Assembly: GCA_963762145.1 (NCBI GenBank)
Contig: CAVXJS010000010.1
Span: 160,001-224,000 of the forward strand
Direction: 5' to 3'
DNA: 64,000 nt
Source of the DNA: an uncultured Candidatus Rokubacteria bacterium
GTDB lineage: Bacteria > Methylomirabilota > Methylomirabilia > Rokubacteriales > CSP1-6
Shown: positions 1,302-56,974 of the stretch, piece after piece
How the letters are laid out: the number at the start of each line of letters is the position of its first letter
Numbering within the stretch: the stretch's first letter is position 1
Position numbers and translations under genes: made by a program
Notes under the pieces: generated by a model
Told to the model about the DNA's origin: nothing
The model's input: the letters and a program-made list of their open reading frames with translations, nothing else
The model's database searches: none

Positions 1302-2198
1302 GACACCCAGCAGCTCTACCGCCTCTCGCTGCCGCTCCGGGCTCACGTGCGTGTAGATCTCGGTGGTCGCCAGCGACTCGTGCCCCAGCAGCTTCTGGAT
1401 CACGCGGAGGTCGGCCCGGCGGTTCAGTAGCTCGGTGGCGAACGTGTGACGGAAGAGGTGCGGGTGCAGGCGCCGGCCGATGCGGCGGCTCACGCGCTTG
1501 CAGAGCAGCACCATCACCTGCTTGGTGATGCGCCCGCGCCAGCTCACGAAGAGCGGATGCTGGGGGCCGAGGCCGGGCCGGGAGGCCAGGTAGGCGTCGA
1601 GGGCGGCCTGGGCGGTGGGGTGCAGCGGCACCACGCGGTCCTTGTTGCCCTTGCCGTGCACCATCAGGCTGGGGGCCTCGCGCGAGTAGTCGCCGACGTC
1701 GGCGGCCATCACCTCGCCGCGGCGCAGGCCGCCGTAGGCCAGCAGGGCCAGGATGGCGCGGTCGCGCGGCTTGCGCTCGCCGGCCACGATCTGCTCGACC
1801 TGGCTCCAGTCGAGAACGCGGGGCAGGCGGCGCTCGCGGCGAGGCACGGAGACGCCGATCATCGGGCTGCGCTGGAGATGGCGGCGCTCCACCAGCCAGC
1901 CGGCGAAGCGGTTCAGCTCGACGAGGCGGCGGCGCACCGTGTTGACGCTCCAGCGGCGGGTGGCCATGTGGGCCTGGTAGTCGCGGATGAGCGTGGTGGT
2001 GAAGGTGCGGAGGGTGGGGGCGCGCCGCCCCTCACCCTGCCCTCTCCCCAGAGGGGAGAGGGTTCTGGAGCGGCGGCGACGGGCGAACTCCAGGAAGAGG
2101 CCGAAGTCGCTGCGGTAGGACTTGATGGTCATCGGGCGGAGCCGCTTCTCCACCGCGCAGTGCTGAAGGAAGCGCGCGTGCAGGGCGGCCAGCGTCAT
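1284..2198 (-). CDS. XerC/XerD-like tyrosine recombinase
   Basis: Catalytic motifs GLRRGE, GKGNKDR, HLFRH, LLGH and TEIYTH are present with an N-terminal SAM-like domain. It contains an in-frame repeat-derived peptide TLSPLGRGQGEG. Confidence 0.93.
   Translation of the reverse strand: MTLAALHARFLQHCAVEKRLRPMTIKSYRSDFGLFLEFARRRRSRTLSPLGRGQGEGRRAPTLRTFTTTLIRDYQAHMATRRWSVNTVRRRLVELNRFAGWLVERRHLQRSPMIGVSVPRRERRLPRVLDWSQVEQIVAGERKPRDRAILALLAYGGLRRGEVMAADVGDYSREAPSLMVHGKGNKDRVVPLHPTAQAALDAYLASRPGLGPQHPLFVSWRGRITKQVMVLLCKRVSRRIGRRLHPHLFRHTFATELLNRRADLRVIQKLLGHESLATTEIYTHVSPERQREAVELLGVSPGGR
2028..2062 (+). repeat. 35-bp palindromic element CCCCTCACCC-TG-CCCTCTCCCC-N3-GGGGAGAGGG (boxC-like), intragenic copy
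   Basis: Matches the consensus of about 15 copies in the window. Confidence 0.95.
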
Positions 2199-2218
2199 GA
2201 CGTGGCCGGAGCCTAGGG

Positions 2219-3386
2219 TGTCCAGACCCGGAATGGTGTAGACACCTTGGCCACCCCAGAGTGCGACATGCGGTCAGGCCCGAGCGGCGCCCCAGAAGAG
2301 CGCGGCGGGGGTGCGGCCACGGACCCGGTAGCCTTGATGGGGCCGCTCGTGATTGTAGGACTGCATGAACCCATCGAGGCTTCGTTGGAGCGCCGTTCGA
2401 CTCGTGAAGTAGCGCCGACGGAAGGCCACGCGCCAATGCTCCTGCAAGATCGTGCCTTGCAGCCGCTCGACGAACCCGTTCGTCCACGCGTGCCGCGGCT
2501 TCGTTCGGGTGTGGCGGAGGCCGAGCGTCCGGCAGGCGTCATCGAACGCCCCCTTGAACTCGGGGCCGCCGTCGGTGAGCAGGCGGCGCAGCCGCCAGCC
2601 CGCCCGGCGATACAGGGGCACCAAGATGCGACGCACGAAGTGAGCGGCCGCCTCGGCGTTGTGGGCTGGCAGCAACCACGCGACGCCGTAGGAGCACGCG
2701 GCGTCGCAGGCCGTGATCTGCCAGACCTTGCCCACGCCTTTGAGCTGCCCAATGTAGAAGGTGTCCACGCACACCAGCTCGCCGGGCTCGCGGGCGGCGA
2801 CGTGACGCGGCTGGCCGTGCTGCGCCTGCCACAGGGTGCTGCGCGTCCGCTCGGTCAGCAACCCCGCCGTCTGCAGGGCGCGGTGCTCGAGCACGGTCAG
2901 CCGCTGCCGGCGGGTCGCCAGCCCGGCCCGCCGCAGGGCACGCTGCACCGTGCTGGGTGCCACGCGCAGCTGCCAGCGATGGCGCAGGTAAGCGGCGATC
3001 CGACTCGCGCCCCACGTCGCCGCGCTGACCGCCACGCTCAGCAGCAGCCGCTCCGTCTCCGGGGCCAGCTGCACCGGTCGGCCGGGGCGGGCCCGATGCC
3101 GCCGCGGATGCACCCCGTCCTGGCCGTAGCGCTCCAACCGCTGACGCCAGCGGTAGAACAGGGCGCGGGAGATCCCCGCCTCCCGGCAGGCCCGACTGAC
3201 ATTGCCCAACTCCTCCGCCCGCTGGATGACATGCAGCCGCAGTCCGTGTACTTTCTCCTCGAGGGTCATCGGTCGATCCTCCCAAAGTGGTTCCCCTGGC
3301 AGGGGGTGGTTCACTCTGGGAACGATAGGCCAGATGGCCCTCACTGTTTCTGGTCACAAGTGTCAACACTAATCCGGCTCAGGACA
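2219..3386 (-). mobile_element. IS481-family insertion sequence
   Basis: TGT...ACA ends. 27-bp imperfect TIRs TGTCCAGACCCGGAATGGTGTAGACAC and TGTCCTGAGCCGGATTAGTGTTGACAC (22/27 match). 8-bp direct repeat GCCTAGGG at 2211-2218 and 3387-3394 contains the CTAG core typical of IS481 targets. Confidence 0.92.
2274..3269 (-). CDS. IS481-family DDE transposase
   Basis: N-terminal HTH (NVSRACREAGISRALFYRW) and rve core (VCVDTF, LTDGGPEF, TNGFVERL, YNHERPHQG). Confidence 0.93.
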   Translation of the reverse strand: MTLEEKVHGLRLHVIQRAEELGNVSRACREAGISRALFYRWRQRLERYGQDGVHPRRHRARPGRPVQLAPETERLLLSVAVSAATWGASRIAAYLRHRWQLRVAPSTVQRALRRAGLATRRQRLTVLEHRALQTAGLLTERTRSTLWQAQHGQPRHVAAREPGELVCVDTFYIGQLKGVGKVWQITACDAACSYGVAWLLPAHNAEAAAHFVRRILVPLYRRAGWRLRRLLTDGGPEFKGAFDDACRTLGLRHTRTKPRHAWTNGFVERLQGTILQEHWRVAFRRRYFTSRTALQRSLDGFMQSYNHERPHQGYRVRGRTPAALFWGAARA

Positions 3387-3414
3387 GCCTAGGGCGCGGC
3401 CGGCGGCCCGTCAA
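3386..3414 (-). promoter_or_regulatory. sigma70-like promoter TTGACG-N17-TAGGCT, probably the original recombinase promoter
   Basis: Near-consensus hexamers with a 17-bp spacer; the -10 lies in the IS target duplication. Confidence 0.6.
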
Positions 3415-3532
3415 TGTCCCGAAACGGAGACGGGGTCCGCCGCGGGTTCGCCCGCGCAACGGGGCGGATCGGGGTATGATCCGCGCCAGACTGAGCTCGG
3501 ATGATCGCGGTTCTCCAGAGGAGGAGACTCCC

Positions 3533-3925
3533 ATGGCGAAGATCACTCAGATCACCGTCACCGCTCAATCCCGGCCGGGTGTGCTGGCCAAGGTGGCGCG
3601 AGCCCTGGCCGACGCGGGCGTGAACATCACCGCCATGTGCGCCTCGGAGTCGACGGGGCGCGCCAAGCTCCGGCTGGTGGTCAGCGATCCGGAGCGGGCC
3701 AAGCAGGCCCTGGCGGCCGCCCGGATCCGGTGCGGGGAAGAACCGGCGCTGCTCCTCTCGGTCGAGGACCGCCCCGGCACCCTGGCCACCCTCGCCTCGC
3801 GGCTGGCGGCGGCCAAGATCAATATCAAGTGCGCGTACGCGACGACCGTGATTGCCGGCGGGGGGCCATGCCACGTCGTGGTGGCGGTGGCCAACGCCGA
3901 CAAGGCCGAGAAGGCGCTGAGGTAG
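3533..3925 (+). CDS. Tandem ACT-domain protein
   Basis: SRPGVLAKVARALADAGVNI and DRPGTLATLASRLAAAKINI ACT repeats; GGAGGAG RBS. Confidence 0.88.
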   Translation: MAKITQITVTAQSRPGVLAKVARALADAGVNITAMCASESTGRAKLRLVVSDPERAKQALAAARIRCGEEPALLLSVEDRPGTLATLASRLAAAKINIKCAYATTVIAGGGPCHVVVAVANADKAEKALR

Positions 3926-3931
3926 CCCCGG

Positions 3932-5182
3932 GTGAAGACCCTCGTGCTCGGCGGCGGCGTGGTGGGCGTGACCACCGCCTATTTCCTGGCCCGGGCCGGC
4001 GACGAGGTGACGATCGTCGAGGCGAACGACGCGCTCGGTCTCGAGGCGAGTGCCGGCAACGCCGGGATCATCGCGCCCGGGCATTCCTTCGCGTGGGCCT
4101 CGCCGCGCGCGCCCGCGATGCTGCTGCGCTCGCTGCGGGGCGACGAGACCGCGATCCGGCTGCGGCTCACGCCGGACCCGCATCTCTACACGTGGGGGCT
4201 ACGGTTCCTCCGCGAGTGCGTCCCCGCGCGGGCCCGGCGCAACACGCTCGTCAAGCTGCGCCTCTGCCAGTACAGCCAGCGCGTGATGAACGAGCTGGTG
4301 CAGGCGGAGCGGCTCGAGTACCACGCGGTGGCGAGGGGCGCGCTCTACCTCTATCGCGACCCGGCCGAGCTCGAGGCCGGGATCAAGAAGATGAAGCTGC
4401 TCGCCGAGCACGGCCAGAAGCAGGAGATCCTCGAGGCGAGCCGGGTGGCCGGTCTCGATCCGGCCTTCGCGCCGGTCCAGGGGAAGATCGCCGGGGCGAT
4501 CCGGGATCTCGGCGACTCGAGCGGTGATTCGCGCCTGTTCACCGAGGGCCTGGGCGCGCTCTGCCGCGCCCGGCTCGGGGTGACCGTCAAGCTCGGCTCG
4601 CGCGTCACCGCGCTCCGGGCCAGCGCCGACCGGATCGAGGGCGTCGTCACCGGCGACGGCGTCTTGACCGCCGATCGCTACGTGCTGGCGCTCGGCGTCG
4701 GGAGCCCGCTGGTGGCGCGCACCGCGGGGGTGAGCCTGCCGATCTATCCCGCCAAGGGCTATTCCTCGACGTTTCCGCTGAAGGCGGGCGGCCTGGCCCC
4801 CACCATTCCCGGCGTGGACGAGCAGTGGCTGGTCGGCTGGTCGCGGCTCGGCGATCGGCTGCGGTTGACCTCCACCGCCGAGTTCGCGGGCTACGACTGG
4901 GGCTGGACCCCCCGCGACTTCGGCAACATCCTGCGCTTCACCCGCGACATCTTTCCCGACGCGGCGGACTACGGCCGCGGGGAGTACCGTGCGTGCCTGC
5001 GGCCGATGACGCCCGACGGTCCGCCCATCCTGGGCCTCGGGCGTCATCGCAACCTGTTCTTCAATTGCGGCCACGGGCATATGGGGTGGACGATGGCGTG
5101 CGGCACCGCGCGCATCGTCGCCGATCTGATGAGCGGGCGCATGCCCGAGGTGGATCTGGAGGGGCTCGGCGCGCGACGGTGA
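3932..5182 (+). CDS. dadA: D-amino acid dehydrogenase (FAD-dependent)
   Basis: GGGVVG FAD motif, ASAGNAG, PAKGYS, LRPMTPDG, GHGHMGWTMACG. Confidence 0.85.
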   Translation: MKTLVLGGGVVGVTTAYFLARAGDEVTIVEANDALGLEASAGNAGIIAPGHSFAWASPRAPAMLLRSLRGDETAIRLRLTPDPHLYTWGLRFLRECVPARARRNTLVKLRLCQYSQRVMNELVQAERLEYHAVARGALYLYRDPAELEAGIKKMKLLAEHGQKQEILEASRVAGLDPAFAPVQGKIAGAIRDLGDSSGDSRLFTEGLGALCRARLGVTVKLGSRVTALRASADRIEGVVTGDGVLTADRYVLALGVGSPLVARTAGVSLPIYPAKGYSSTFPLKAGGLAPTIPGVDEQWLVGWSRLGDRLRLTSTAEFAGYDWGWTPRDFGNILRFTRDIFPDAADYGRGEYRACLRPMTPDGPPILGLGRHRNLFFNCGHGHMGWTMACGTARIVADLMSGRMPEVDLEGLGARR

Positions 5183-5196
5183 GCGAGCGGGCTGGG

Positions 5197-5231
5197 CCCC
5201 TCACCCTGCCCTCTCCCCGGAGGGGAGAGGG
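5197..5231 (+). repeat. 35-bp palindromic element
   Basis: Consensus match, intergenic. Confidence 0.95.
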
Positions 5232-5311
5232 TGGTCGGGGGGTCGGGTTCGCCATCGGTGAGCCGCCGGCCCAACCTTGTCCGGATGCCTCTGGCCGAGT
5301 ACGCTCCACCC

Positions 5312-6751
5312 ATGACGGTGGACCTGGTGATCCGGAACGGCCGGGTGGTCACGCCGGCGGGCGTGATCGGTGGCGGCGTCGCCATCGACGGCGAGCGCAT
5401 CGTGGCCGTCGGCGCCGACGCCACGCTGCCGCCGGCCCGCCGGACGATCGACGCGCGCGAGCAGTACGTGCTCCCCGGCCTCATCGATGCCCACGTCCAC
5501 ATGGGCAGCGAGGAGGACGCGTCCATCGCGGAGGGGCTGGCCCAGAACATGCCCGGGGAGACGGATGGCGCCCTGCACGGCGGGGTGACCACCTTCGCGC
5601 ACTTCGTCGGCCAGCGGAACGAGCCGCTGGTGCCGAACATCGAGACGACCATCCGCGAGGGTAATCGGTGGTCGCACACGGACTACTTCTTCCACGCCAT
5701 CGTGTCGACGGAAGCGCACTACGCCGAGCTGCCGGCCGTGTGGGATCGGGGTGTCACCTCGTTCAAGCACTTCTTCAACGCGTACAAGCCGCGGCCGACC
5801 GAGGGGCTGTCCTGGCTCGGGGGGCCATCCGACGCCGGGATGGTGCTGCGCTCGTTGCGGTTCTGCGCGGAGCGTGGGGCGCCGGGCATCTGCATCGTCC
5901 ACTGCGAGGACATCGACATCATCGACGTGCTCGAGACGGAGCTGACGGGGAGCGGGCGCGCCGACCTGGGAGCCTGGAGCGACGCGCGGCCCAACGTGGC
6001 CGAGTACTCGCGCATCGCCCAGGCCATCGACCTCGCCCGATCGGCGGGCGCGCCCATCTACATCGCGCACATGTCGACGCGGGAAGGGGCAGACCGGGTT
6101 GCCGCCGCTCGCCGTGAGGGCTGGCCGGTCTGGGCCGAGGTGACCCCGCATCACCTCACGCACACCGGGTCGATGGAGGAGGAAGTGGGCTGCTGGGGCA
6201 AGGTGAACCCACCGCTCCGCGCGGCGGCCGATGTCGAACGGCTCTGGCGGGCCTTTCACGACGGCGGTATCACGTGCCTCGGGTCCGATCACGGCACGGG
6301 CGGGCGCACGCACGCCACCAAGGCCAAGGGCGGGCCGAAGCACGGCAACATCTGGAGGGCGCGCTCGGGCAACCGGGGCGGGCTCGAGCACTTCCTGCCC
6401 GTGCTGACGACGTTCGGGGTCCACGCCGGCCGCATTTCCATCGAGGACGTCGCCCGCGTGGGCGCCCTGAACACGGCCAAGGTATTCGGCTTGTATCCCC
6501 GGAAAGGCGCGCTCATCCCCGGCGCCGACGCCGACGTGATCATCGTCGATCTCGATCGCGAGGCCGTCGTCGACGAGCACTTCTACCACTGCCTGGCCGA
6601 GACGAGCGTCTACCACGGACACCGGTTCCGCGGCATGGCCCGCACGTCCGTCGTGCGGGGCCGCGTGATGATGGACGAGTGCGAGACCGTCGGGAAGCCG
6701 GGGTGGGGCCGTTACCTTCCGCGCGGCGGCGCGGCCGGACGGAGATCGTGA
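5312..6751 (+). CDS. Cyclic amidohydrolase (dihydropyrimidinase/hydantoinase/allantoinase family)
   Basis: PGLIDAHVH, SFKHF, VHCED, AHMST, KVNPPLR, GSDH, GADADVII. Confidence 0.88.
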   Translation: MTVDLVIRNGRVVTPAGVIGGGVAIDGERIVAVGADATLPPARRTIDAREQYVLPGLIDAHVHMGSEEDASIAEGLAQNMPGETDGALHGGVTTFAHFVGQRNEPLVPNIETTIREGNRWSHTDYFFHAIVSTEAHYAELPAVWDRGVTSFKHFFNAYKPRPTEGLSWLGGPSDAGMVLRSLRFCAERGAPGICIVHCEDIDIIDVLETELTGSGRADLGAWSDARPNVAEYSRIAQAIDLARSAGAPIYIAHMSTREGADRVAAARREGWPVWAEVTPHHLTHTGSMEEEVGCWGKVNPPLRAAADVERLWRAFHDGGITCLGSDHGTGGRTHATKAKGGPKHGNIWRARSGNRGGLEHFLPVLTTFGVHAGRISIEDVARVGALNTAKVFGLYPRKGALIPGADADVIIVDLDREAVVDEHFYHCLAETSVYHGHRFRGMARTSVVRGRVMMDECETVGKPGWGRYLPRGGAAGRRS

Positions 6752-7761: not shown

Positions 7762-7777
7762 AAGGGGAGACAACGCC

Positions 7778-8674: not shown

Positions 8675-8682
8675 GCGATTCT

Positions 8683-8782
8683 CCCTCTCCCCTCTGGGGA
8701 GAGGGCAGGGTGAGGGGCGGGCGCCCGCGACGGGACCTTGAACCTCCCCCTCACCCCGACCCTCTCCCCAGAGGGGAGAGGG
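8683..8782. repeat. Two palindromic elements in opposite orientation (8683-8717 minus, 8747-8782 plus) between convergent operons
   Basis: Both match the consensus. Confidence 0.93.
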
Positions 8783-8807
8783 AGTGTGGCGAAGCCGCGC
8801 GCTCGCC

Positions 8808-9812: not shown

Positions 9813-9813
9813 G

Positions 9814-26153: not shown

Positions 26154-26191
26154 CCCCTCACCCTGTCCCTCTCCCCCTCCGGGGGCGAGGG
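26154..26191 (+). repeat. Palindromic element, slightly diverged
   Basis: CCCCTCACCC-TGT-CCCTCTCCCCC-TCC-GGGGGCGAGGG. Confidence 0.9.
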
Positions 26192-26202: not shown

Positions 26203-26979
26203 CTAGTGCATGACGAGGCCGCCATCGACGCTGATGGCCTGGCCCGTCATGTAGGCGGCCTTGCTCCCGGCGAGGAAGCCGATCACGTTCGCCACGTCCT
26301 CCGCCCGCTCCATCCGGCCCAGGGGCACGGTGGCCAGGCGCCGGCGCGTGAACTCCTCGGCCGGAACGCCGGACAGCGCGCCCAGCTCGGCGGAGACGGT
26401 CGTCCACATGTCGGTCTCGACGAAGCCCGGGCAGACGCAGTTCACCCGGATGCCGTCGGCGGCGTGGGCCAGGGCGAGGCTCTTGGTGATGCTGATCACG
26501 GCCGCCTTGCTCGCGTTGTAGGGGAGGTTGCTGGCGCTGCCGACCTTGCCCGCCATCGAGGCCAGATTGATGATGGCGCCGCGCTTCTGCGCGATCATGG
26601 TCGGCAGCGCGGCCTGGCTGGCGAAGAAGACCGCCCTGGCGTTGATGGTCAGCACCGCGTCCCAGTGATCCTCCGTGATCTGGAGCGTCGAGGCGGCGCG
26701 GTAGATCCCGGCGTTGTTCACGAGGATGTCGACGCGACCGAATGCCGCGCGGGTCCGCTCGACCATGGCGGTGAGGTCGGCTCGGCGGGTGACGTCGGTC
26801 GGCAGGGCGAGCGCGCGGCGGCCGAGCGCGGTCACCTCGCCGGCGGTGCGCTCGGCGCCCGGCTTGTCGAGCTCGGCGACGACGACGTCGGCGCCCAGCC
26901 GGGCCAGCTCGAGGGCGGTGGCGCGGCCGATGCCTCGGCCGGCGCCGGTGACGATCGCGATCTGGCCTTGCAGGTCCAT
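26203..26979 (-). CDS. SDR-family oxidoreductase
   Basis: TGAGRGIG, NNAG, YNASK. Confidence 0.92.
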   Translation of the reverse strand: MDLQGQIAIVTGAGRGIGRATALELARLGADVVVAELDKPGAERTAGEVTALGRRALALPTDVTRRADLTAMVERTRAAFGRVDILVNNAGIYRAASTLQITEDHWDAVLTINARAVFFASQAALPTMIAQKRGAIINLASMAGKVGSASNLPYNASKAAVISITKSLALAHAADGIRVNCVCPGFVETDMWTTVSAELGALSGVPAEEFTRRRLATVPLGRMERAEDVANVIGFLAGSKAAYMTGQAISVDGGLVMH

Positions 26980-26988
26980 GGGTGACCA

Positions 26989-27023
26989 CCCCTCACCCTG
27001 CCCTCTCCCCTGAGGGGAGAGGG
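26989..27023 (+). repeat. 35-bp palindromic element
   Basis: Consensus match, inside an operon, 9 bp upstream of the SDR start. Confidence 0.95.
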
Positions 27024-27035
27024 TGGGTTGGTGTT

Positions 27036-28061
27036 TTAGGTTTCGGCTTCGATTAGCTCGCGGGGGTCCTGGGACGGCTTGTAGCCCATGTGGGTCGGGA
27101 ACTCGTCGCTCAGCGGCCACGGCTTCGGGAACTTGAGCCAGAGGCGCAGCATGTGGCGCTTCTGGTCGGGCGCCGGGCCGTCGATGAAGCCGGTGCGCGA
27201 GTGGAGGATCGTGTAGTTGTTGATGAACTGGATGTCGCCCGGCTCCAGGTCCATGTCCAGGCGCAGGTCCGCCCGCCGGGTCTGCTCGTCGAGGAAGTCG
27301 AGCGCCGCGCGCTCGAAGGTGGTGAGCGGCACCTCGCGCTTCACGGCCCCCGCGTTGATCTGGTTGCGGATGTAGCGGCAGCTCACGACGCCGTCCTGGT
27401 GGCCGAACACCGGGATCGGGCGCTCGGAGACGCCGCGTTCGGTCAGGGCCGCCTCCCGGCGGATGTAGTAGTAGCCGTTGTAGAGGAGGCCGAGGTACTC
27501 GGGATGCTGGGCCAGGATCTCGTTGTGCACGGTCGTCGAGCTCACGATGCTGCTGAGGCCGCCTTCGAGGCCCCGGCGCAGGCAGAGCAGCCCCACCATG
27601 TCGCCCGCGTCGGTGTGGTACGGCAGGTAGGCGTTGGTCTCGTAGCCGCGCACGTCGATGTTGCCGTAGGTCCGCCCGTGGTCGTAGACGTGGCCGAGCA
27701 GCTCGCCCTGGGGGTTCTGGTAGAGCGGCCCTCCCATGTAGCGGCCGAAGCCCCAGAAGATCAGGCCGACGTCGTCGTCGCTGTACCGGCGGACGGGCAG
27801 GCCGCGGAGCACGACGAACCCGCGGCCGTCATACATCTCGGTCACCGCCTCCGCGAGCCGGCTCCGCATCACGGTGAGCGGGAAGTGCTCGCGCTGGATC
27901 CCCTCGAGCGTCACGCCCGAGGCCTTCGCGGTGGTCAGCGCGCGGTCGATGTCCGCGATCTCGGCCTCGGTGAGCGTGACGATCCAGGAGGCCTCGCGCG
28001 CGAGCGTCTCGCCGCGCCAGGCCTTGGGGTTGGTGATCGGGGTCATGCGGATGTCGCTCAC
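27036..28061 (-). CDS. TauD/TfdA-family Fe(II)/2-oxoglutarate dioxygenase
   Basis: YHTD facial triad, NNYTILHSR, RHMLRLWL. Confidence 0.9.
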   Translation of the reverse strand: MSDIRMTPITNPKAWRGETLAREASWIVTLTEAEIADIDRALTTAKASGVTLEGIQREHFPLTVMRSRLAEAVTEMYDGRGFVVLRGLPVRRYSDDDVGLIFWGFGRYMGGPLYQNPQGELLGHVYDHGRTYGNIDVRGYETNAYLPYHTDAGDMVGLLCLRRGLEGGLSSIVSSTTVHNEILAQHPEYLGLLYNGYYYIRREAALTERGVSERPIPVFGHQDGVVSCRYIRNQINAGAVKREVPLTTFERAALDFLDEQTRRADLRLDMDLEPGDIQFINNYTILHSRTGFIDGPAPDQKRHMLRLWLKFPKPWPLSDEFPTHMGYKPSQDPRELIEAET

Positions 28062-39714: not shown

Positions 39715-40164
39715 ATGAGGAAGCTACGCGAGATCATGCGGGCCGGGTTTCTCTTCATGGTGCAGCGCGATGCCACCGTGCGGGAGGCGGTGCAGGTGAT
39801 GACCGACAACAACGTCGGCATCGTGCTGGTGCTCGAGGGCGAGCGCCTGGTCGGCGTCTTCTCCGAGCGCGACGTGGTGCGGCGCGTGGTGGATCGCGGG
39901 CTCGATCCCGACCGCACGCCGGTGGGGGACGTCATGACCACCGAGATCGTCGTCGGCGATCCGGACGAGGACTACCAGTCCGCGATGCGCAAGATGGATC
40001 AGGCGAGCATCCGGCACCTGCTGGTGGTGAAGGGCGCGGAGATGCTCTCGATGATCTCGATCCGCGACCTGATCCGGGTCGACATGCAGGACAAGGGGGA
40101 GGAGATCCGGTTCTTGCGGGAGTATTTGTATCAGGTGCCGCAGGCCCCTGCGCAGATGAGCTAG
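39715..40164 (+). CDS. CBS-domain protein
   Basis: LVGVFSERD, VGDVMT, IRHL, ISIRDL. Confidence 0.9.
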   Translation: MRKLREIMRAGFLFMVQRDATVREAVQVMTDNNVGIVLVLEGERLVGVFSERDVVRRVVDRGLDPDRTPVGDVMTTEIVVGDPDEDYQSAMRKMDQASIRHLLVVKGAEMLSMISIRDLIRVDMQDKGEEIRFLREYLYQVPQAPAQMS

Positions 40165-40196
40165 CCGCCACCCCTGCGCCCCCTCAGCGTGCAACC

Positions 40197-40232
40197 CCCC
40201 TCACCCTGCCCTCTCCCCGGAGGGGAAAAGGG
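40197..40232 (+). repeat. Palindromic element with a degenerate right arm
   Basis: CCCCTCACCCTGCCCTCTCCCC-GGA-GGGGAAAAGGG. Confidence 0.88.
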
Positions 40233-40242
40233 TTTAGGGGGG

Positions 40243-41013
40243 TCAGGCGTCCATTGCGGCTCGGTTGAGGGTGCGGCGGGGGGCCAGGGTGCTGCCGTGG
40301 TAGCGGGCGGTGAGCTGGGCGCGGCCGCGGAGCGCGAGCTTCTGGAAGATGTGGGTGAGGTGGGCCTTCACCGTGGCCTCGGTGATGCCGAGGCGATGGG
40401 CGGCCTCCTGATTGCTGAGCCCGCCCACGATGAGGTGGACGATCTCCTGCTCGCGGGGGCTCAGTCGCTCCCGGAACGCCAGCTTGCCCACAGGGGGTTT
40501 GACCGACCGGGCGGCCAGCTCCTCGACGGTCAGGGCGAGCACCCGCTTGCTGGCCCACACCTCGCCCTGGTGCACGACGCGGATCGCCTTGATCAGGCTC
40601 TCGACCGAGGCGCTCTTGGCGAGGATTCCGCGGGCCCCCGTCTTGAGGGCCTCGACGGCCCACCGCTCATCCCGGTCGGCGGCGGCCAGGATCACCCAGG
40701 GTCGCACCCCGTTCAGGCGAAGCTCGCGGCAGATGTCGAGGGCGCCGTCGGTCTGCGCGTCCACGAGCAGGATGTGCGGGAGGCTGCTGCGCAGCGGGTC
40801 TCGCATCGGCGGCGCGGTCAGCTCGGCGACGATCACCAGCGTCGGATCGCTCGCCAGGAGCCGATGCAGGCCGGAACGGAACAGGGAGCTATCGCTCAGG
40901 AGAGCGACGCGGACCGGTGTCGGCGCGACGATCGTCGGCGCCTTCACGAGCGAGTCACCGGCCCTAGCCACTGAGGGTTGCCCGTTGCGACGGATCATCA
41001 TTATCGGACCCAC
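40243..41013 (-). CDS. NarL/LuxR-family response regulator (start uncertain)
   Basis: Degenerate REC domain plus LSPREQEIV...SNQEAAHRLGITEATVKAHLTHIFQKL. Confidence 0.88.
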   Translation of the reverse strand: MGPIMMIRRNGQPSVARAGDSLVKAPTIVAPTPVRVALLSDSSLFRSGLHRLLASDPTLVIVAELTAPPMRDPLRSSLPHILLVDAQTDGALDICRELRLNGVRPWVILAAADRDERWAVEALKTGARGILAKSASVESLIKAIRVVHQGEVWASKRVLALTVEELAARSVKPPVGKLAFRERLSPREQEIVHLIVGGLSNQEAAHRLGITEATVKAHLTHIFQKLALRGRAQLTARYHGSTLAPRRTLNRAAMDA

Positions 41014-46038: not shown

Positions 46039-46065
46039 GGGTGGCTCCTTTCCTGACGTCAGTTC

Positions 46066-46080
46066 GCAAGGCGTGTGCCG
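46066..46080 (-). promoter_or_regulatory. sigma-54 promoter (CGGCAC-ACGCC-TTGC)
   Basis: Consensus match about 30 bp upstream of the ATG. Confidence 0.7.
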
Positions 46081-46191
46081 GGATACCGAAGCTCGCATCG
46101 GGGGCGGGAGTCGGGGAAAGGCGTAAGTGCTGGGCGCGGTCGGGAAGAGTGTGCTGGGTGGAGCTTACCGACTGGCCTTGGGTCGCTCGGC

Positions 46192-46226
46192 CCCCTCACC
46201 CTGCCCTCTCCCCGGAGGGGAGAGGG
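46192..46226 (+). repeat. 35-bp palindromic element
   Basis: Consensus match. Confidence 0.95.
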
Positions 46227-46235
46227 GGAGATCGG

Positions 46236-46604
46236 TTACTGGAGGAGGCGGCGGATGGCGCGACGGAGCGCTGTGATCTTGAAGGGCTTGGGGAGCAGGG
46301 GGGCGTGGATGACCTTCAGGAAGCCTTCGAAGGCGGCGTTGTTGGCCAGCGGCGAGACGAAGACGAAGTGTGGGGGGTTGCTCGGCCAGCGACTCCGCAC
46401 CGCGGAGTAGAGGCTCGGGCCGTCCACCTCGGGCATCATCAGGTCGGAGACGATCAGGTCGTAGCACTTCCGGCCGAGCAGGCGCAGGGCTTCGAAGCCG
46501 TTGCCGCTGGCGTCCACCTCATGGCCGTCTGCCCGGAGGCTCGAGACGATGAGGTCCCGGGCGCCCTGGTCGTCCTCGACCACGAGAATGCGGCCGGTGG
46601 TCAT
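46236..46604 (-). CDS. Single-domain response regulator (REC)
   Basis: ILVVEDD, SDLMMPEVDG, KPF. Confidence 0.88.
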   Translation of the reverse strand: MTTGRILVVEDDQGARDLIVSSLRADGHEVDASGNGFEALRLLGRKCYDLIVSDLMMPEVDGPSLYSAVRSRWPSNPPHFVFVSPLANNAAFEGFLKVIHAPLLPKPFKITALRRAIRRLLQ

Positions 46605-49158: not shown

Positions 49159-49385
49159 CCCTCTCCCCGCTGGGGAGAGGGCAGGGTGAGGGGCGGGGAG
49201 GTGAGGGGCGGGAGGTGAGAGGGGCGGGGAGGTGAGGGGCGAGGTCGGCCGACGTATTACCGAGGCGCGCGTCCGCTTCGAAAGGTCGTCCTCAAGGCCC
49301 GAACCACGGACCCCTCACCCTACCCTCTCCCCCGAGGGGAGAGGGTGTGTTTGGACGGACCCCTCACCCTGCCCTCTCCCGAGGG
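49159..49385. repeat. Element cluster: minus copy 49159-49193 with tandem tail copies to about 49243; plus copy 49311-49345; internally deleted tandem copy 49360-49385
   Basis: Directly visible in the sequence. Confidence 0.92.
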
Positions 49386-50998: not shown

Positions 50999-51056
50999 CC
51001 GGCGTCAGCGGACTGACACGCTTCGGCCAGGCTTCGGATGAGGTAGACTCCCGCCA

Positions 51057-52007
51057 ATGCGAATCGGCGTGCTCATTCCCACGCGCGGCGCGGTGATGGA
51101 GTCGGCGCGGCGGCCTCCCGTCGAGACCTGCTGGACCATGGCCCGCCGGGCCGACCAGGCCGGTTACGACGCGGTCTGGGTAGGCGACAGCATCGTGGCC
51201 AAGCCGCGGCTCGACGCCGTGACGACCCTGGCCTACCTGGCCGGGATCACCACGCGGGTGCGCCTGGGCACCGCGGTCCTGCTCCCGGCGCTCCGTCACC
51301 CGGTGGTGCTGGCCCAGCAGCTCGCCAACATCGACCAGATCTCCCAGGGTCGCCTGGTGCTGGGGCTGGGCGTGGGCTGGAGCCTGCCCAGCGCCGAGCG
51401 CGAGTGGGCGGCGTGCGGGGCCAATCACAAGGCGCGCGTGCGCCGGCTCGAGGAGCACATCGCGATCTGGCGCAAGCTCTGGACCGGGGACCCGGTGACC
51501 CATCAGGGGGAGGACCTCGACCTGGTGGACCACACCATCGGGCCGCTGCCCTGGCGCAGCGAGGGGCCGCCGGTGCTCATCACCGCGGGCAACCGCGGGG
51601 AGCTGCTGCCCGCGCAGTTCGAGCGCTTCGGGCGGCTGGGCGACGGCATCATCACGACCTACGTGCACTTCGAGGAGATCCCGGTGATCCGCGAGCGCGC
51701 GCTCGAGGCGCTGGCCCGGCACGGCCGGCCGCGCGCGGAGCTTCCCCTCTGCGTGTACACCACCGTGCGGCTCGACGACGACGTGGCGACCGCCCAGCGC
51801 GTCACGAGCGAGTTTCTCGCGACCTACTATGGCGGCGGCGTGCACGAGCGGGGCGCGATGGGCCTGGGGCCGGCGTCGGTGGTGATCGAGACGGTCAGGC
51901 GCTACGCGGCGGCCGGGGCCACCGATCTGTGCATCCGGTTCGTCGGGAACGATCAGGCGGCGCAGCTCGATCGGTTCACGGCGGAGGTGTTGCCCGCGGT
52001 GCGGTAG
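51057..52007 (+). CDS. LLM-class flavin-dependent oxidoreductase
   Basis: GYDAVWVGD, RVRLGTAVL..LRHPV.LA, GRLVLGLGVGW. Confidence 0.9.
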   Translation: MRIGVLIPTRGAVMESARRPPVETCWTMARRADQAGYDAVWVGDSIVAKPRLDAVTTLAYLAGITTRVRLGTAVLLPALRHPVVLAQQLANIDQISQGRLVLGLGVGWSLPSAEREWAACGANHKARVRRLEEHIAIWRKLWTGDPVTHQGEDLDLVDHTIGPLPWRSEGPPVLITAGNRGELLPAQFERFGRLGDGIITTYVHFEEIPVIRERALEALARHGRPRAELPLCVYTTVRLDDDVATAQRVTSEFLATYYGGGVHERGAMGLGPASVVIETVRRYAAAGATDLCIRFVGNDQAAQLDRFTAEVLPAVR

Positions 52008-52027
52008 CCCTTCACCCCTCGAGGCCA

Positions 52028-52062
52028 CCCCTCACCCTGCCCTCTCCCCTGAGGGGAGAGGG
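52028..52062 (+). repeat. 35-bp palindromic element
   Basis: Consensus match. Confidence 0.95.
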
Positions 52063-52075
52063 TCATGGAGGAGAT

Positions 52076-52519
52076 ATGAGCGAGTTTCCGAAGCTGACTT
52101 ACGAGGCGCTGACGGTCGGGGAGGAGTTCGTGTCGGATACGCACCTGGTGACGCCGGAGGACATCGAGGCGTACGCCTTCGCGGTGGACGATCATCATCC
52201 GTGGTTCGAGGGGCCGTCGCCGTTCGGGGGGTCGGTCGCGCATCCGACCCTGATGGCGAATCAGGCCCTGCACCTGCGGCACAGCAAGTACATCGTGCAC
52301 GCGGGGCTCCACGCCAAGATGGAGTTCAACTTCCTCGAGCCGGTGCGGCCGGGCATGCGCGTGCAGACGCGCGGGCAGGTCATCGACAAGTACGAGCGCC
52401 GCGGACGGCAGTACATGGTCACCGAGTACGTCACGCGAGACGAGCAGGGGACGCCGCTCGTCCGCGGGCAGTTCACCCAGATGCTGATCCCGGAGGGCAC
52501 GCGCCATGTCGGTCGCTGA
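52076..52519 (+). CDS. MaoC/hot-dog dehydratase subunit
   Basis: YAFAVDD.HPW, AHPT, FNFLEPVRPG. Confidence 0.82.
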   Translation: MSEFPKLTYEALTVGEEFVSDTHLVTPEDIEAYAFAVDDHHPWFEGPSPFGGSVAHPTLMANQALHLRHSKYIVHAGLHAKMEFNFLEPVRPGMRVQTRGQVIDKYERRGRQYMVTEYVTRDEQGTPLVRGQFTQMLIPEGTRHVGR

Positions 52520-52922
52520 GGCGGTCGCGGTCGGGGCGGAGCTTCCCGCGCTCACGAAGGAGATGACGCAGCGGCGGATCGACGTCTACTCGGGCGTGAA
52601 GCCGCGCTCGATCCACACCGACGAGGCGTGGGCGCACCAGAAGGGGTTCCGCACCACGCTGGCGCAGGGGATGATGTCGACCGCCTACGTCTCGGAGATG
52701 ATGACGCGGCTCCTCGGCGCGGGCTTCGTCAAGGGTGGCACGCTGTCCATGGCGTTCATCAAGCCGGTCTACGCGGGGGACCGGCTCACCGTGCACGGGG
52801 TCGTGAAGGAGACGCGGCCCGAGGGCCGCGGCACCCGCGTGGTCGTCGAGGTGTGGTGCCAGAACCAGCACGGCGAGAAGACCGCGGTGGGGACGGCGAG
52901 CGGGCTCCGGACGGAGGCCTGA
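52506..52922 (+). CDS. MaoC-family dehydratase
   Basis: IHTDEAWA..GF....AQGM, FIKPVYAGD. Confidence 0.85.
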   Translation: MSVAEAVAVGAELPALTKEMTQRRIDVYSGVKPRSIHTDEAWAHQKGFRTTLAQGMMSTAYVSEMMTRLLGAGFVKGGTLSMAFIKPVYAGDRLTVHGVVKETRPEGRGTRVVVEVWCQNQHGEKTAVGTASGLRTEA

Positions 52923-52938
52923 TGAGGGAGCTTCACCC

Positions 52939-53028
52939 GAGAGCCTGCTGACCCGGGCCGGCTTCAAGCAGATCCCCGCCGACACGCCGAAGCGGGTGGA
53001 GCACCTGCAGACGGTGGCCCCGCACCGG
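52939..53028 (+). pseudogene. Possible gene remnant (ESLLTRAGFKQIPADTPKRVEHLQTVAPHR)
   Basis: Host-like codon usage with no start or stop of its own; recalled resemblance to a conserved hypothetical lipoprotein motif is unverified. Confidence 0.35.
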
Positions 53029-53029
53029 G

Positions 53030-54355
53030 CTAGCTGGCGGGCGTGACGAGGTCGGCCTTCGTGGCCGGCACCGAGTAGGTCGCGTCCGGGTGCTTCGGCA
53101 GCGCGTCGTCCCAGGCGCGGTAGCGCGCGCGCATGGCCGCGAGGCGCCCCGGGTCGCGGCGCGCGTGATTGGCGCGCTCGCGCTCATCGCCGGCCAGGTT
53201 GAACAGGAACTCGTCGCCCTCGACCGACAGGTACTTCCAGTCGCCGTCGCGCAGCGCCTGCTGGTTGCGGTAGAGCATCTTCCAGTAGAGCTCGCGCGCG
53301 AAGGTCTTCGAGGGATTCCGGAGCACCGGGAGCAGGCTCACGCCGTCGAGGGGATAGTCCGGGTGCGGCGCGACCCCGGCGGCCTCCAGGAACGTCGCCA
53401 CCCAGTCCATGGTGATCGCGGGCTGCGCGGTGACGCGGCCCGGGCGCACCTTCGTGGGCCAGCGCACGATGTAGGGAACGCGGATGCCGCCCTCGAGCAG
53501 GTCCATCTTCTTGCCGACCAGCGGCCAGGTGTCGGAGAAGCGCTCGCCGCCGTTGTCGCTGGTGAACACGACCAGCGTGTCGCGCTCCGCGCGCGCCTTC
53601 GCGAGGGCCCTGAGGATGCGCCCGATGCCCTCGTCCATCTGGCGGATCATGGTGAGGTAGGTCGCGAGCGAGCCGCCGTCGAAGTGGTAGAGCTTCTCGA
53701 TCCGCCGGGCCTCGGCCTCGTCCTCGCGCGTGAGCCACGGCCAGTGCGGGGCGTTGTAGTGCACCGACAGGAAGAACGGGGCGTCGCGCTGGCGCCCGAC
53801 GAACTCGACGGCCCGGTCGGAGATCAGATCGGTGAGGTAGCCCGTCCGGTGCGACTCGGTCTCGCCGTCGTACAGGTCGTGGTGGCCCGCGGAATCGCGG
53901 TGCGTGAAGTAGTCCATGCCGCCCGAGAGCGATCCGAAGAACTCCTGGTAGCCGCTGCGGAGCGGCCCGAAGTGCGGCGGGTAGCCGAGGTGCCACTTGC
54001 CGACGAGCGCGGTGGCGTAGCCGGCGTCGCGCAGCAGCGACGGGAGCGTCGGGTGCGCCGGGGGCAGGCCGAGGGTCGCGTCGCCGCGGGTGTTGCTGCG
54101 GATGGGCTCGTCGGCGCCGCCCCGCAGGCGATGCTGCCAGCGGCCGGTCATCAGCGCGAAGCGGGTGGGCGAGCAGACGCACGAGTTGGCGTAGCCGTGC
54201 GTGAACCGCAGCCCCTCGCGGGCCAGGCGGTCGAGCGAGGGCGAGCAGGAGGCGAAGGACGCGCCGCCCGCGGCGGGCCGACCCCCGTAGCACCCCAGGT
54301 CGGCGTAGCCGAGATCGTCCGCCATGATGAACAGGAAGTTCGGGCGCCGAGCCAT
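53030..54355 (-). CDS. Arylsulfatase-family sulfatase (Cys-type, FGly-dependent)
   Basis: PNFLFIMADDLG, CSPTR, GKWHLG, SDNGG. Confidence 0.93.
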   Translation of the reverse strand: MARRPNFLFIMADDLGYADLGCYGGRPAAGGASFASCSPSLDRLAREGLRFTHGYANSCVCSPTRFALMTGRWQHRLRGGADEPIRSNTRGDATLGLPPAHPTLPSLLRDAGYATALVGKWHLGYPPHFGPLRSGYQEFFGSLSGGMDYFTHRDSAGHHDLYDGETESHRTGYLTDLISDRAVEFVGRQRDAPFFLSVHYNAPHWPWLTREDEAEARRIEKLYHFDGGSLATYLTMIRQMDEGIGRILRALAKARAERDTLVVFTSDNGGERFSDTWPLVGKKMDLLEGGIRVPYIVRWPTKVRPGRVTAQPAITMDWVATFLEAAGVAPHPDYPLDGVSLLPVLRNPSKTFARELYWKMLYRNQQALRDGDWKYLSVEGDEFLFNLAGDERERANHARRDPGRLAAMRARYRAWDDALPKHPDATYSVPATKADLVTPAS

Positions 54356-54391
54356 GCCCGGCGAGCCTAACCCACTTCTCGGTGGCGTGCA

Positions 54392-54426
54392 CCCTCTCCC
54401 CTCTGGGGAGAGGGCAGGGTGAGGGG
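54392..54426 (-). repeat. 35-bp palindromic element (minus orientation)
   Basis: Consensus match. Confidence 0.95.
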
Positions 54427-54430
54427 TCTT

Positions 54431-55450
54431 CTAGATCGCGAGCACGTTGCGTCCGAGCGGCCGCCCCTCGCGGAGCGCGGTGAAGGCCTCCTCGATCTCC
54501 GCCAGCGGGATCACCCGGTCCACGATCGGCTTGATCCGTCCCTGGGCCACCAGCTCCATCGTCTCCGCGAGCTCCTGCTTGGTGTTGGCGCGCGAGCCCA
54601 CGATCTCGAGCTCGCTCCGCACCAGCTCGCGCGGCAGGACCGAGAGCGGCACCTCCGGCGTGTAGCCGACGAAGACCAGCCGGCCCGCGCGCCGGAGGCT
54701 CTGTACGCTCGACGGCAGCGTCTGCGCGCTCGCCACGAACTCCAGCACCACGTCCACGCCCAGGCCGCCGGTCAGCTTGCGCACGGCCTCGTGGAAGGGC
54801 CCGCGGCGGGCGTCCACCACCGCGTCGGCGCCCAGGCTCCGGGCCAGCTCGAGCCGCGCGTCGTTGACGTCCACCGCGATCACCCAGCCGCCGGCCAGCC
54901 GCGCCATCTGGAGCGCGTGGAGCCCGACGCCGCCCACGCCGATCAGCGCGAGCGTGGTGCCGGGGCGCACCTGCGCGCGCTTGGTGATCGCGTGATAGGA
55001 CGTCGCCACCGCGTCGCCCAGGATGCACGCGGCCTCGAGCGACACGTGGTCCGGCACCTTGCAGAGGTTGACGCCCGGGGTCTTCACGTACTCCGCGAAG
55101 CCGCCGTCGATGCTGAAGCCGTGCTGGCGCACCTCCGCGCAGAGCGTGTCGCGTCCCACGCGGCAGGCGGGGCAGCGGCCGCAGGTGATGTAGAAGTTCA
55201 CGATGACGCGGTCGCCCGGGGCGACGCCGCGGACGTCGCGGCCGACCTCGGCCACCTCGCCCGCGATCTCGTGGCCCATGATGAGCGGGATCACGCCCAG
55301 GCCCATGCGGTCGGCGCGGATCTTCACGTCGGTGCCGCAGACGCCCACGTTGCGCACGCGCACCAGCGCCTCGTGCGGCGCGATGGCCGGCGTCGGCACG
55401 TCCTTGGCGACGAACGGCCCGTTGAACTTCTCGAGGACGAGAGCGCGCAT
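54431..55450 (-). CDS. Zn-dependent alcohol dehydrogenase (MDR family)
   Basis: GVCGTD, GHEIAG, C..C..C.......C, GVGGVG. Confidence 0.92.
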   Translation of the reverse strand: MRALVLEKFNGPFVAKDVPTPAIAPHEALVRVRNVGVCGTDVKIRADRMGLGVIPLIMGHEIAGEVAEVGRDVRGVAPGDRVIVNFYITCGRCPACRVGRDTLCAEVRQHGFSIDGGFAEYVKTPGVNLCKVPDHVSLEAACILGDAVATSYHAITKRAQVRPGTTLALIGVGGVGLHALQMARLAGGWVIAVDVNDARLELARSLGADAVVDARRGPFHEAVRKLTGGLGVDVVLEFVASAQTLPSSVQSLRRAGRLVFVGYTPEVPLSVLPRELVRSELEIVGSRANTKQELAETMELVAQGRIKPIVDRVIPLAEIEEAFTALREGRPLGRNVLAI

Positions 55451-55460
55451 GGATCCGCCG

Positions 55461-56749
55461 CTACACCTGCTGGAGCACCCGGGGCCGCGGCGCGGCCGGG
55501 GTCAGGAGCGTGCGCCAGTCGGTCGCGCGGGGCACCACCGCTTCCGCCGGGTGCAGCGGGTAGTAGGTCGGCGCGACGCCCGGCGGGATGCCGCCGGCCT
55601 CGACGGTCCGGGTGGCCTGCAGGAGCAGCCGGCGCGCCTGGATCACCGCCCGGTCGGCGGGCCCCAGGTGCTCGCGGGTGCGATCGACGATCGGCCCCAT
55701 GCTCTCCTGCACCGCGCGGTCCTGGGCGTTGATGCCGTCGATCCCGGTGAAGGTCTCGGTCTTCTGCACGCGGCGATCGAGCAGGTAGCCGTTCTCCCGG
55801 TTGCGCTTCGCGCGGAAGGTGGTCTGGTCGACGTCGAGCGGGCCGTTGCCGAGCCGGCGCTCGAGGCGATCCTCGTCGGTCAGGGGCTCGGTCGTGCTGT
55901 GCTCCCAGTTGTAGACCATGGTGGTCTCGTCATCCATCGGGACCCAGATGTGGCCGGCCGCGCCGGAGAAGCCGCGGGCGGAGCCGCCGGTGCGGGCGGG
56001 CCGGATCTGGTGGAAGGGCAGGATGAAGTGATACGCGCGCACGTGGAGATCGCCGCTCTCGAGCGGCCGCAGCCCCGGCGTAGCGGTAGCCGTAGTCGGT
56101 GACGTCCAGCTCGAGCACCGGCGCCTTGCCGCGCACGAAGGGATCCGTCGGCTTGAAGCCCGGCCGCGAGGAGTCGGGGTCGAGGACCCGGTGCAGGATC
56201 GGCGCGTGGGAGGTGTCGATCCCGCCCTCGAGGCCCTGCAGCCAGTTGCTCTCCTGGATGACCTTCGAGACGTGGCGATGGCTGGCCGGCGCCTGGGTCC
56301 AGGCGAAGTGCGGCGGCGGCGGGCTGCCGCTCCGCGGGGCCCAGGTAGGCCCAGATGAGGCCGCCCGCTTCCACGGTGGGGTAGGCGGTGGTCCGGATCT
56401 TGTGCGCGAAGCTCAGCGCCTCGGGCTCGTTCATCATGTCCACGCACTCGCCGGTCACGTCGAACTTCCAGCCGTGGTAGACGCAGCGCAGGCCGCACTC
56501 CTCGTTCCTGCCGAGGAAGAGGGACGCCTGCCGGTGCGGGCAGCGCTCGGCGAGCAGGCCGACGCGGCCCTGCGTGTCGCGGAAGGCCACCAGCTCCTCG
56601 CCCAGCAGCCTGACGCGGACCGGCGGGCCATCGGGCTCGGGCAGCTCCCACGCCAGGAGCGCGGGGATCCAGTAGCGGCGCATCGTGGTACCCATGGGGG
56701 TGCCGGGGCCGACGCGGGTGACGCGTTCGTTCTCGTCGTGTGCCAGCAT
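55461..56749 (-). CDS. Rieske oxygenase alpha subunit (phthalate 4,5-dioxygenase/LigX-like); frameshifts near 56070 and 56320
   Basis: CPHR...CVYHGWKFD Rieske motif; NWLQ.LEGGIDTSH in the middle frame; QDRAVQESMG near the C-terminus. Confidence 0.85.
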
Positions 56750-56831
56750 TGCGGGCCTCCTTGCTGGAGCGGGCGCGAGATGGGCCGAGGATGGACCCGA
56801 TGGAGTGCGTGGTCAAGCGCGGGGCACGGAC

Positions 56832-56974
56832 CCCCTCACCACCCGTAGCCCCTCACCCTGTAGCCCCTCACCCTGTAGCCCCTCACCCTGCCCTCTCCCC
56901 AGGGGGAGAGGGAGAGGCGCGCGCGGTCTCACCCTCTCACCCTCTCCCCTCTGGGGAGAGGGCAGGGTGAGGGG
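56832..56974. repeat. Element cluster: tandem 15-bp tails (GTAGCCCCTCACCCT) leading into plus copy 56879-56912, then minus copy 56940-56974
   Basis: Directly visible in the sequence. Confidence 0.93.

Follow-up and report, generated by a model that had tools for sequence, protein, structure and literature searches.

Oriented GC-skew halos at synonymous sites around single REP-like units in a Candidatus Rokubacteria genome

Bacterial strand asymmetry is usually ascribed to replication and, more weakly, to transcription. A 64,000-nt stretch of DNA from an uncultured Candidatus Rokubacteria bacterium (assembly GCA_963762145.1, contig CAVXJS010000010.1, positions 160,001 to 224,000; hereafter "the window") raises the question of whether a short repeat can have a strand asymmetry of its own and, if so, whether the repeat makes that asymmetry or settles where it already exists. 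Scattered along the window are copies of a palindromic element that resembles the hairpins of repetitive extragenic palindromic (REP) sequences. The original prediction, made from the letters of the window, was that one strand of the element is G/T-rich and C-poor for ~100-200 bp on both sides of each copy, even inside genes and whatever their direction, and that the repeat causes this through a localised mutational process. Each unit is 35-40 nt long and consists of a 10-nt C-rich 5' tail (CCCCTCACCC), 1-4 nt, a 10-nt pyrimidine arm (CCCTCTCCCC), a short loop and a purine arm (GGGGAGAGGG), with the two arms forming a 10-bp stem. We give skews around units for the strand that bears the tail, unless stated otherwise.

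A skew halo around single units

We identified oriented units with a regular-expression pattern that allowed at most two mismatches per piece, covering the 6.26 Mb draft assembly of this uncultured soil bacterium (25 contigs, 70% GC), in which we also called genes with a codon-usage model (5,743 genes, 81% of the genome coding). There are 261 units, 131 on the plus strand and 130 on the minus strand, and 14 of them lie in the window. Grouping units at a distance of at most 250 nt gave 203 clusters: 146 single units, 52 convergent '+-' doublets, four '-+' pairs and one triple. In the window, both 150-nt flanks are skewed as predicted at seven of the eight single units. Six of the seven plus-oriented single copies are G-rich on the plus strand on both sides, the copy at 26154 being the exception; since the plus strand of the window has a background GC skew of +0.038, part of the signal at these copies is background. 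The plus strand had been expected to look C-rich around minus copies, and it does so at 54392.

For the genome-wide analysis, all element-like words and the 12 nt 3' of each unit were masked. GC skew around the 146 single units is +0.061, +0.081 and +0.079 in successive intervals from -150 to 0, and +0.112, +0.043 and +0.029 in those from 0 to 150; bootstrap intervals inside the halo exclude 0, and skew is ~0 past 200 nt. The mean skew per locus is 0.064 (s.d. 0.089), 80% of loci are positive, and the observed value was reached in 0 of 100,000 sign-flip permutations. The tail-bearing strand is G-rich and C-poor for ~150 bp on both sides, within the range originally predicted. Plotting four-fold degenerate sites against distance, as the original prediction had suggested, gave an excess of GC skew of +0.34 (0-50 nt), +0.16 (50-100 nt) and +0.04 (100-150 nt) on the arm side, and of +0.28, +0.20 and +0.14 over the same distances on the tail side; the excess is +0.04 at -300 to -150 and 0 elsewhere. 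The gradient has run out by ~150-200 nt. The effect at four-fold sites is 3-4 times that at all sites.

Indeed, the halo is concentrated at third codon positions, in genes of either direction. Upstream of the element, in genes on the element strand, third-position C falls from 0.497 to 0.425 as G rises from 0.428 to 0.496, and the swap is also seen in genes on the other strand. We found the halo in the three common gene arrangements, which are convergent (44 same/opp loci), tandem-same (29 same/same loci) and tandem-opposite (31 opp/opp loci). Of 32 neighbour contexts, 29 have the shift; it does not appear where exchanging C and G would alter the amino acid. Runs of at least four G outnumber runs of at least four C by 236 to 121 in the halo, and by 156 to 137 in the far flanks. 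Word asymmetries in coding flanks are fitted by a single per-base parameter (residual s.d. 1.04-1.09), and words complementary to the tail are not enriched over the general G>C shift (the standardised residuals of six 5-mers lie between -1.86 and +1.82 and average ~-0.4). The shift is therefore a generic compositional one, acting per base. We conclude that the halo exists, follows the orientation of the element, reaches ~150 nt and sits at synonymous sites.

Convergent doublets have no halo. The four-fold skew of their outer flanks is +0.028 [-0.037, 0.090], as compared with +0.194 [0.150, 0.234] at single units. Adding two single-unit profiles predicts ~+0.135, which is outside the observed interval and rules out additive superposition of per-unit halos. 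A single unit folds, on either strand, into a 10-bp stem with a 12-nt unpaired tail (-11.5 kcal/mol, seen for 5197-5231). By contrast, a doublet folds into one long hairpin in which both tails are paired (-48.6 kcal/mol, z -8.5, for the window doublet at 56879-56974). The lack of a halo at doublets, together with the failure of superposition, argues that the effect needs an asymmetric element with a free tail. The halo is also stronger at loci with at least two tail copies (0.085-0.087 vs 0.054); 39 of the 146 single units are of this kind.

Confounds and base signature

The coding strand has no net GC skew in this genome (-0.003), element-free gene ends (3,395 3' ends and 3,470 5' ends) have an absolute skew of at most 0.019, and the skew expected from strand and codon position is ~0, leaving observed minus expected skew unchanged. 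These values rule out coding-strand and gene-end effects as the cause, and the halo thus survives the control that the original prediction had proposed for itself. Transcription-associated skew was rejected because the sign of the halo is alike in same-strand and opposite-strand genes, which also bears out the claim that gene direction does not matter. A replication-strand confound was rejected on two grounds: the orientation of elements is unrelated to skew at the 50-kb scale (mean on the element strand 0.0011 +/- 0.0011; 51% of units on the G-rich strand), and the halo is similar where the element lies on the G-rich large-scale strand (+0.08/+0.07) and on the C-rich one (+0.08/+0.04). The second observation speaks against fork stalling on one replication strand, which had been among the suggested causes. 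Flanks are not paralogous (17 similar pairs among 292 flanks), and decayed element fragments or paralogous flanks were ruled out as the source by masking, by the scarcity of similar pairs and by the word tests. Compensation for the C excess of the element itself was ruled out as well, since this excess has no per-locus relation to the halo (rho = 0.01).

Some of the C-poverty beside units belongs to the element. C is scarce in the 10 nt that follow the purine arm on its 3' side, at 7% in positions +1 and +2 and ~20% in +3 to +9 (e.g. 5232-5241, 27024-27033), and the base after the stem is A/T at +1 and G/T at +2, so the conserved element reaches past the stem. Short examples that had been offered as evidence of the halo, such as 27024-27060, are thus C-poor partly through the element's own 3' end.

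The predicted richness in T holds in part. There is a T>A shift only at third positions (+0.12 [0.05, 0.19]), where it amounts to +0.120 beside a G>C shift of +0.122 on the same strand; all-site T/A skew near elements is not shifted, and third-position AT content is not raised (-0.002 [-0.009, 0.006]). In having G>C and T>A together on one strand, at synonymous sites, the halo resembles replication-associated asymmetry, which at third positions of this genome is 0.035-0.044 for GC and 0.02-0.046 for TA. It differs in covering ~300 bp rather than a replichore, in having ~3 times the GC amplitude at third positions (0.12 vs 0.035-0.044) and in being independent of the large-scale strand.

Comparison with a second species (G008; a draft assembly of which 2.76 Mb was read) gave the nature of the changes. 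Direct C<->G swaps make up 75% of third-position differences between the two species. On the element strand, proximity to an element brings no enrichment of C<->T differences, either in same-strand genes (46:17 near vs 197:71 far) or in opposite-strand genes (35:59 near vs 139:338 far), and near elements they are ~12% as frequent as C<->G differences (81 vs 659). A two-path estimate from these counts yields a skew of ~0.002 for deamination, not 0.12. Given this preponderance of C<->G swaps and the lack of C<->T enrichment, the deamination of C originally invoked is too small a route for the halo, and the flat AT content likewise speaks against it. At third positions the two species diverge by 0.256-0.272 up to 150 nt from an element, by 0.23-0.27 at more than 300 nt, and by 0.266-0.300 at 122 control junctions. 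The ratio of near to far divergence, taken relative to that of the controls, is 1.007 [0.925, 1.099] for third positions; for four-fold sites no more than 100 nt from single units it is 1.043 [0.938, 1.148]. A one-directional rise in rate sufficient for the skew predicts a ratio of 1.20-1.24 before saturation and, by our estimate, ~1.12-1.16 after it, and a symmetric bias predicts ~0.97. A strong local mutator, as the repeat had been supposed to be, is disfavoured; a modest rise of up to ~10-15% is compatible with the intervals. The halo behaves like a fixation bias, which promotes one direction of change at the expense of the other, and unlike extra mutation.

Candidate origins of the halo

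As the leading explanation we tentatively favour an element-linked, strand-specific process of biased repair or conversion, which is closest to the nick-directed repair listed among the options of the original prediction. The unpaired tail of a single unit would make the two strands structurally unlike, with a pyrimidine run on one and a G-quadruplex-type motif formed by tail and arm (GGGGAGAGGGCAGGGTGAGGGG) on the other. Strand-specific processing of this asymmetric structure, either a nick by the nuclease of a REP-associated tyrosine transposase (RAYT) or repair at a non-B structure, could start the process, and short-tract repair or gene conversion could then resolve C/G mismatches unequally. 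Single copies would in this way impose a directional bias on ~150 bp to each side, C:G pairs being preferentially replaced by G:C, such that the tail-bearing strand would become G-rich at synonymous sites; pairing of the tails in doublets would switch the process off. In favour of this process, the four-fold gradient peaks at both edges of the element and decays over ~100-150 nt, and control junctions lack a two-sided skew. The generic per-base shift, its presence in all three gene arrangements and on both large-scale strands, the unraised divergence, the lack of a halo at convergent doublets and the stronger halo with more tail copies also speak for it, as does the recurrence of the halo at 55 single units of G008 (all sites +0.116 and +0.063; third positions +0.235 and +0.164). 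It is possible, though a little more doubtful, that single REP units are oriented starts of short-tract, strand-specific biased repair or conversion that turns C to G at silent sites of their neighbours, and that this may need the RAYT nuclease or the quadruplex- or triplex-prone tail. Known biased gene conversion favours GC over AT and has no strand polarity. The halo is like biased conversion or strand-directed mismatch repair in its directional, fixation-type bias at silent sites, its lack of a rise in divergence and its tract-like length of ~100 nt; unlike in biased conversion, C and G are exchanged here and the polarity is set by the repeat.

Two features of the unit bear on the structures that such a process might use. 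On the strand opposite the tail (the minus strand of each unit and, in the window, the plus strand at 8696-8717), the purine arm and the complement of the tail read GGGGAGAGGGCAGGGTGAGGGG, which has four runs of at least three G separated by loops of 2-3 nt and is a canonical intramolecular G-quadruplex motif. This motif could rival the hairpin only where the tail is free, as in single units. The tail CCCCTCACCC is also the pyrimidine arm read backwards at nine of 10 positions (5197-5231 and all units). After a 2-nt turn the tail would lie parallel to the purine arm, in the geometry of a pyrimidine-motif intramolecular triplex or, in duplex DNA, of H-DNA; the mirror match could be chance, the sequence being C-rich and of low complexity. 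Single strands of REPs have been reported to form G-tetraplexes (PMC4690160).

Several observations weigh against biased repair or conversion. Both the causal role of the element, as opposed to its settling at skewed sites, and the mechanism of repair or conversion are inferred, and the causal role has to contend with empty orthologous sites that carry nearly equal skew. The replication in G008 is not independent, as many loci are common by descent. Mapping by both flanks placed 57 of the 203 clusters on G008 sequence, with 23 of them empty there; among mapped single units, 22 have the same orientation in G008, two lie the other way round and 14 have an empty site there. Starting from G008, 44 of 60 could be placed on the source genome, and 11 were empty. 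For the 24 single units that only one of the two genomes has, skew is +0.053 [0.021, 0.085] at the empty site and +0.063 at the occupied one (third positions 0.083 vs 0.108), and C<->G differences between occupied and empty loci are not significantly polarised (129 vs 114). Moreover, perfect-consensus copies have a full-strength halo, as strong as that of diverged copies, the 4 kb around the RAYT-type gene of the genome contain a single unit, which lies 1.4 kb upstream of it, with none on the downstream side, and a model with one nick per unit works only if paired tails are further assumed to shut the process down. The nick, the conversion tract and the non-B structure are all hypothetical here.

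Equal composition at orthologues that lack the element is what the original prediction had named as pointing to target preference, and the 24 loci formally show it. Nonetheless, the comparison is weak. With ~26% of third positions differing between the species (divergence ~0.26), a relic skew would persist at a site that had lost its unit. Furthermore, all seven 'empty' loci that we looked up are occupied in at least one other genome of the genus, as judged from alignment lengths alone and with several states ambiguous, so that former or recurrent sites are probable; in the closest relative, by the same measure, four of the seven are occupied, two are ambiguous and one is empty. Mismatches proved uninformative as to the age of elements, because near-consensus units stand at orthologous sites while the flanking silent sites differ by ~26%. 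At sites shared by the two species, the unit is close to consensus, the surrounding few dozen intergenic bases cannot be aligned and the copy number of the tail differs. Judged from these alignments, the unit would be either far better conserved than its surroundings or renewed repeatedly at the same sites.

A preference of insertion or orientation would reverse the order of events: the skew would come first, and the element, mobilised as single-stranded DNA (ssDNA) by a Y1 transposase, would place its tail strand into the locally G-rich strand, which may be G-rich through being single-stranded more often. We consider this unlikely. It would fit the similar oriented skew at empty sites of the 24 loci, the full halo at perfect copies, the lack of extra divergence, the absence of a halo at symmetric doublets and the patchy occupation of the same intergenic sites across the genus, which suggests preferred sites. 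A parallel exists in the IS200/IS605 family, a related enzyme family, whose elements are oriented relative to replichore-wide GC skew through their use of ssDNA, orientation correlating with the sign of the skew (PMC3971601); there the skew is pre-existing and replichore-wide, whereas the gradient described here is local and centred on the element. The replichore-scale orientation bias expected by this parallel is lacking (51% of units on the G-rich strand, as above). Two-sided domains of skew do not pre-exist at control junctions (n = 269; mean 0.006; correlation of left with right r = -0.009, as compared with r = 0.19 at element loci). Within genes, 50-nt windows have almost no autocorrelation of skew (r = 0.06-0.08), so recognition of a short site does not explain a gradient of ~100 nt, and any sensor would need to take in the composition of 100 nt or more to either side. 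The probable status of the 'empty' sites as former or recurrent ones also counts against a preference for skewed targets.

Selection on the composition of the flanks, as a filter on surviving insertions, as later action on synonymous sites, or as both, is likewise improbable in our judgement. In a single unit the free tail is C-rich on one strand or transcript; on the opposite one it is G-rich, prone to form quadruplexes and similar to a Shine-Dalgarno sequence. Flanks of complementary composition would sequester the tail. This logic applies equally to transcripts of either strand, which fits the independence from gene direction, and it is consistent with the loss of the halo where doublet tails pair, with the stronger halo at loci with more tail copies, with behaviour like that of a fixation bias and with the excess of G-runs in the halo. 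Against it, tail-complementary words are not enriched over the general shift, the shift extends across nearly all contexts, weak selection would be needed on ~100 silent sites per locus, and the C excess of an element does not predict its halo.

The mechanism first put forward, in which a strand held single-stranded by the element undergoes cytosine deamination, making the repeat a local mutator of gene ends and promoters, is very improbable: the third-position asymmetry does match replication-type asymmetry in direction, but flat AT content, unenriched C<->T differences and unraised divergence largely contradict deamination and mutagenesis alike. We regard an artefact of decayed fragments, paralogous flanks, gene-call or assembly errors as just as remote, since self-made gene calls over 81% of the genome, a C-poor 3' end that belongs to the element and degenerate partner units that would add G on the arm side are set against masking of element-like words with 12 nt 3', a raw skew free of gene calls, a four-fold effect 3-4 times the all-site effect and absent at non-synonymous swaps (which requires correct reading frames), few similar flanks, and a halo in two separately assembled genomes.

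The repeat family and its copies in the window

Both 10-mers of the unit are in excess in the window (28 matches vs 11.0 +/- 3.0 expected, and 35 vs 13.7 +/- 3.9), where the density of units (14 of 261) is ~5 times the genome average. Table 1 lists the copies. The gene call at 1284-2198 (minus strand) spans the unit at 2028-2062; an ATG is also present at ~2132 on the minus strand, which suggests a true gene start downstream of the unit, in which case the unit would belong to the 5' region of the gene. Tandem copies of the tail (3-4 copies, period ~15 nt, CCCCTCACCCTGTAG-like) precede some units, as at 56832-56890 and 49199-49239. No Rfam family matched within the window. The window or part of it is present in 20 listed metagenome runs, most of them labelled soil, and the shares of words found in soil metagenomes suggest strains at ~1-5% divergence.

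Table 1. REP-like units in the window. Halo coordinates are the unit plus 150 nt on each side; flank skews are plus-strand GC skews of the left / right 150 nt.
Feature	Position	Strand	Evidence	Flank skew	Halo	Remarks
Single REP-like unit (tail + hairpin)	2028..2062	+	regex census	+0.271 / +0.179	1878..2212	
Single unit	5197..5231	+	regex census	+0.188 / +0.071	5047..5381	
Unit of tail-to-tail '-+' pair	8683..8717	-	regex census			
Unit of tail-to-tail '-+' pair	8747..8782	+	regex census			
Single unit	26154..26191	+	regex census	-0.030 / -0.061		stem variant GGGGGCGAGGG; sole single copy in the window without a halo
Single unit	26989..27023	+	regex census	+0.097 / +0.178	26839..27173	
Single unit	40197..40232	+	regex census	+0.049 / +0.289	40047..40382	
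Single unit	46192..46228	+	regex census	+0.271 / +0.457	46042..46378	
Unit of '-+' cluster	49159..49193	-	regex census			extra tail copies at 49199-49239
Unit of '-+' cluster	49311..49345	+	regex census			followed by truncated copy at 49360-49381
Single unit	52028..52062	+	regex census	+0.213 / +0.224	51878..52212	
Single unit, minus orientation	54392..54426	-	regex census	-0.041 / -0.157	54242..54576 (-)	G-rich on the minus strand
Left half of convergent doublet	56832..56918	+	regex census			~4 tandem tail copies (~15-nt period)
Right half of convergent doublet	56940..56974	-	regex census			56879-56974 folds as one hairpin

We treat the family as REP/REPIN-like, with a putative link to RAYT. 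Like REPs and REPINs, the units are short imperfect palindromes in high copy number that are mostly extragenic (211 of 261 lie outside our gene calls) and depleted between divergent genes (16 of 261), and 52 of the clusters are inverted doublets, a form that folds into one long hairpin in the window. A pattern search found the family in all five same-genus genomes searched (54-253 matches), and units stand at orthologous sites in two species. In G008, units are strongly co-oriented within some contigs, such as C4 and C5 (15 plus and 3 minus in C4), and the sign of a unit tends to run against the overall GC skew of its contig, though not significantly (mean -0.0032 +/- 0.0024, n = 44). As in REP/REPIN-RAYT systems, the RAYT-type gene is single-copy: the source genome has one Y1-transposase gene (a single PF01797 match), at L171 1456-2382 (contig C14), which matches the RAYT model NF047646 with 86.8 bits against a cut-off of 80. 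It encodes a 308-aa protein with an N-terminal Y1 transposase domain and a C-terminal helix-turn-helix region (weak HTH_38 and HTH_23 matches), and this protein seems longer than the ~150-aa RAYT core (the NCBIfam profile has 146 positions). Unlike in known systems, units of this family do not flank the RAYT gene, and there is no GTAG-type tag by the stem, a 10-nt C-rich tail being found instead. A conserved tetranucleotide of the GTAG or CGTC type is absent from positions -4 to -1 and +1 to +4 of units; GTAG is present only between some tandem tails. We found no literature on a compositional halo or local skew around REPs or REPINs, in a search that left most subscription journals outside, and the term 'GC skew' does not occur in the accessible parts of the leading REPIN/RAYT papers.

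What REPs and RAYTs do in cells, and how active they are there, has been a matter of debate for decades. The gradient described here spans ~300 bp around a 35-nt repeat, exceeds replication asymmetry at silent sites several-fold, is blind to the direction of genes and of replication, and is lost at symmetric forms of the repeat. A practical consequence is that codon-usage and skew statistics are distorted by the halo at gene ends. If elements choose such sites, the halo shows what a RAYT-type system senses. If the element is causal, REPs and RAYTs would exert a measurable strand-specific effect on the evolution of their neighbours, and the halo would provide a handle for testing strand-specific nicking, biased conversion and the processing of non-B DNA in bacteria. 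Biased repair, if that reading is true, would make the repeat a local evolutionary force, distinct from the asymmetries of replication and transcription.

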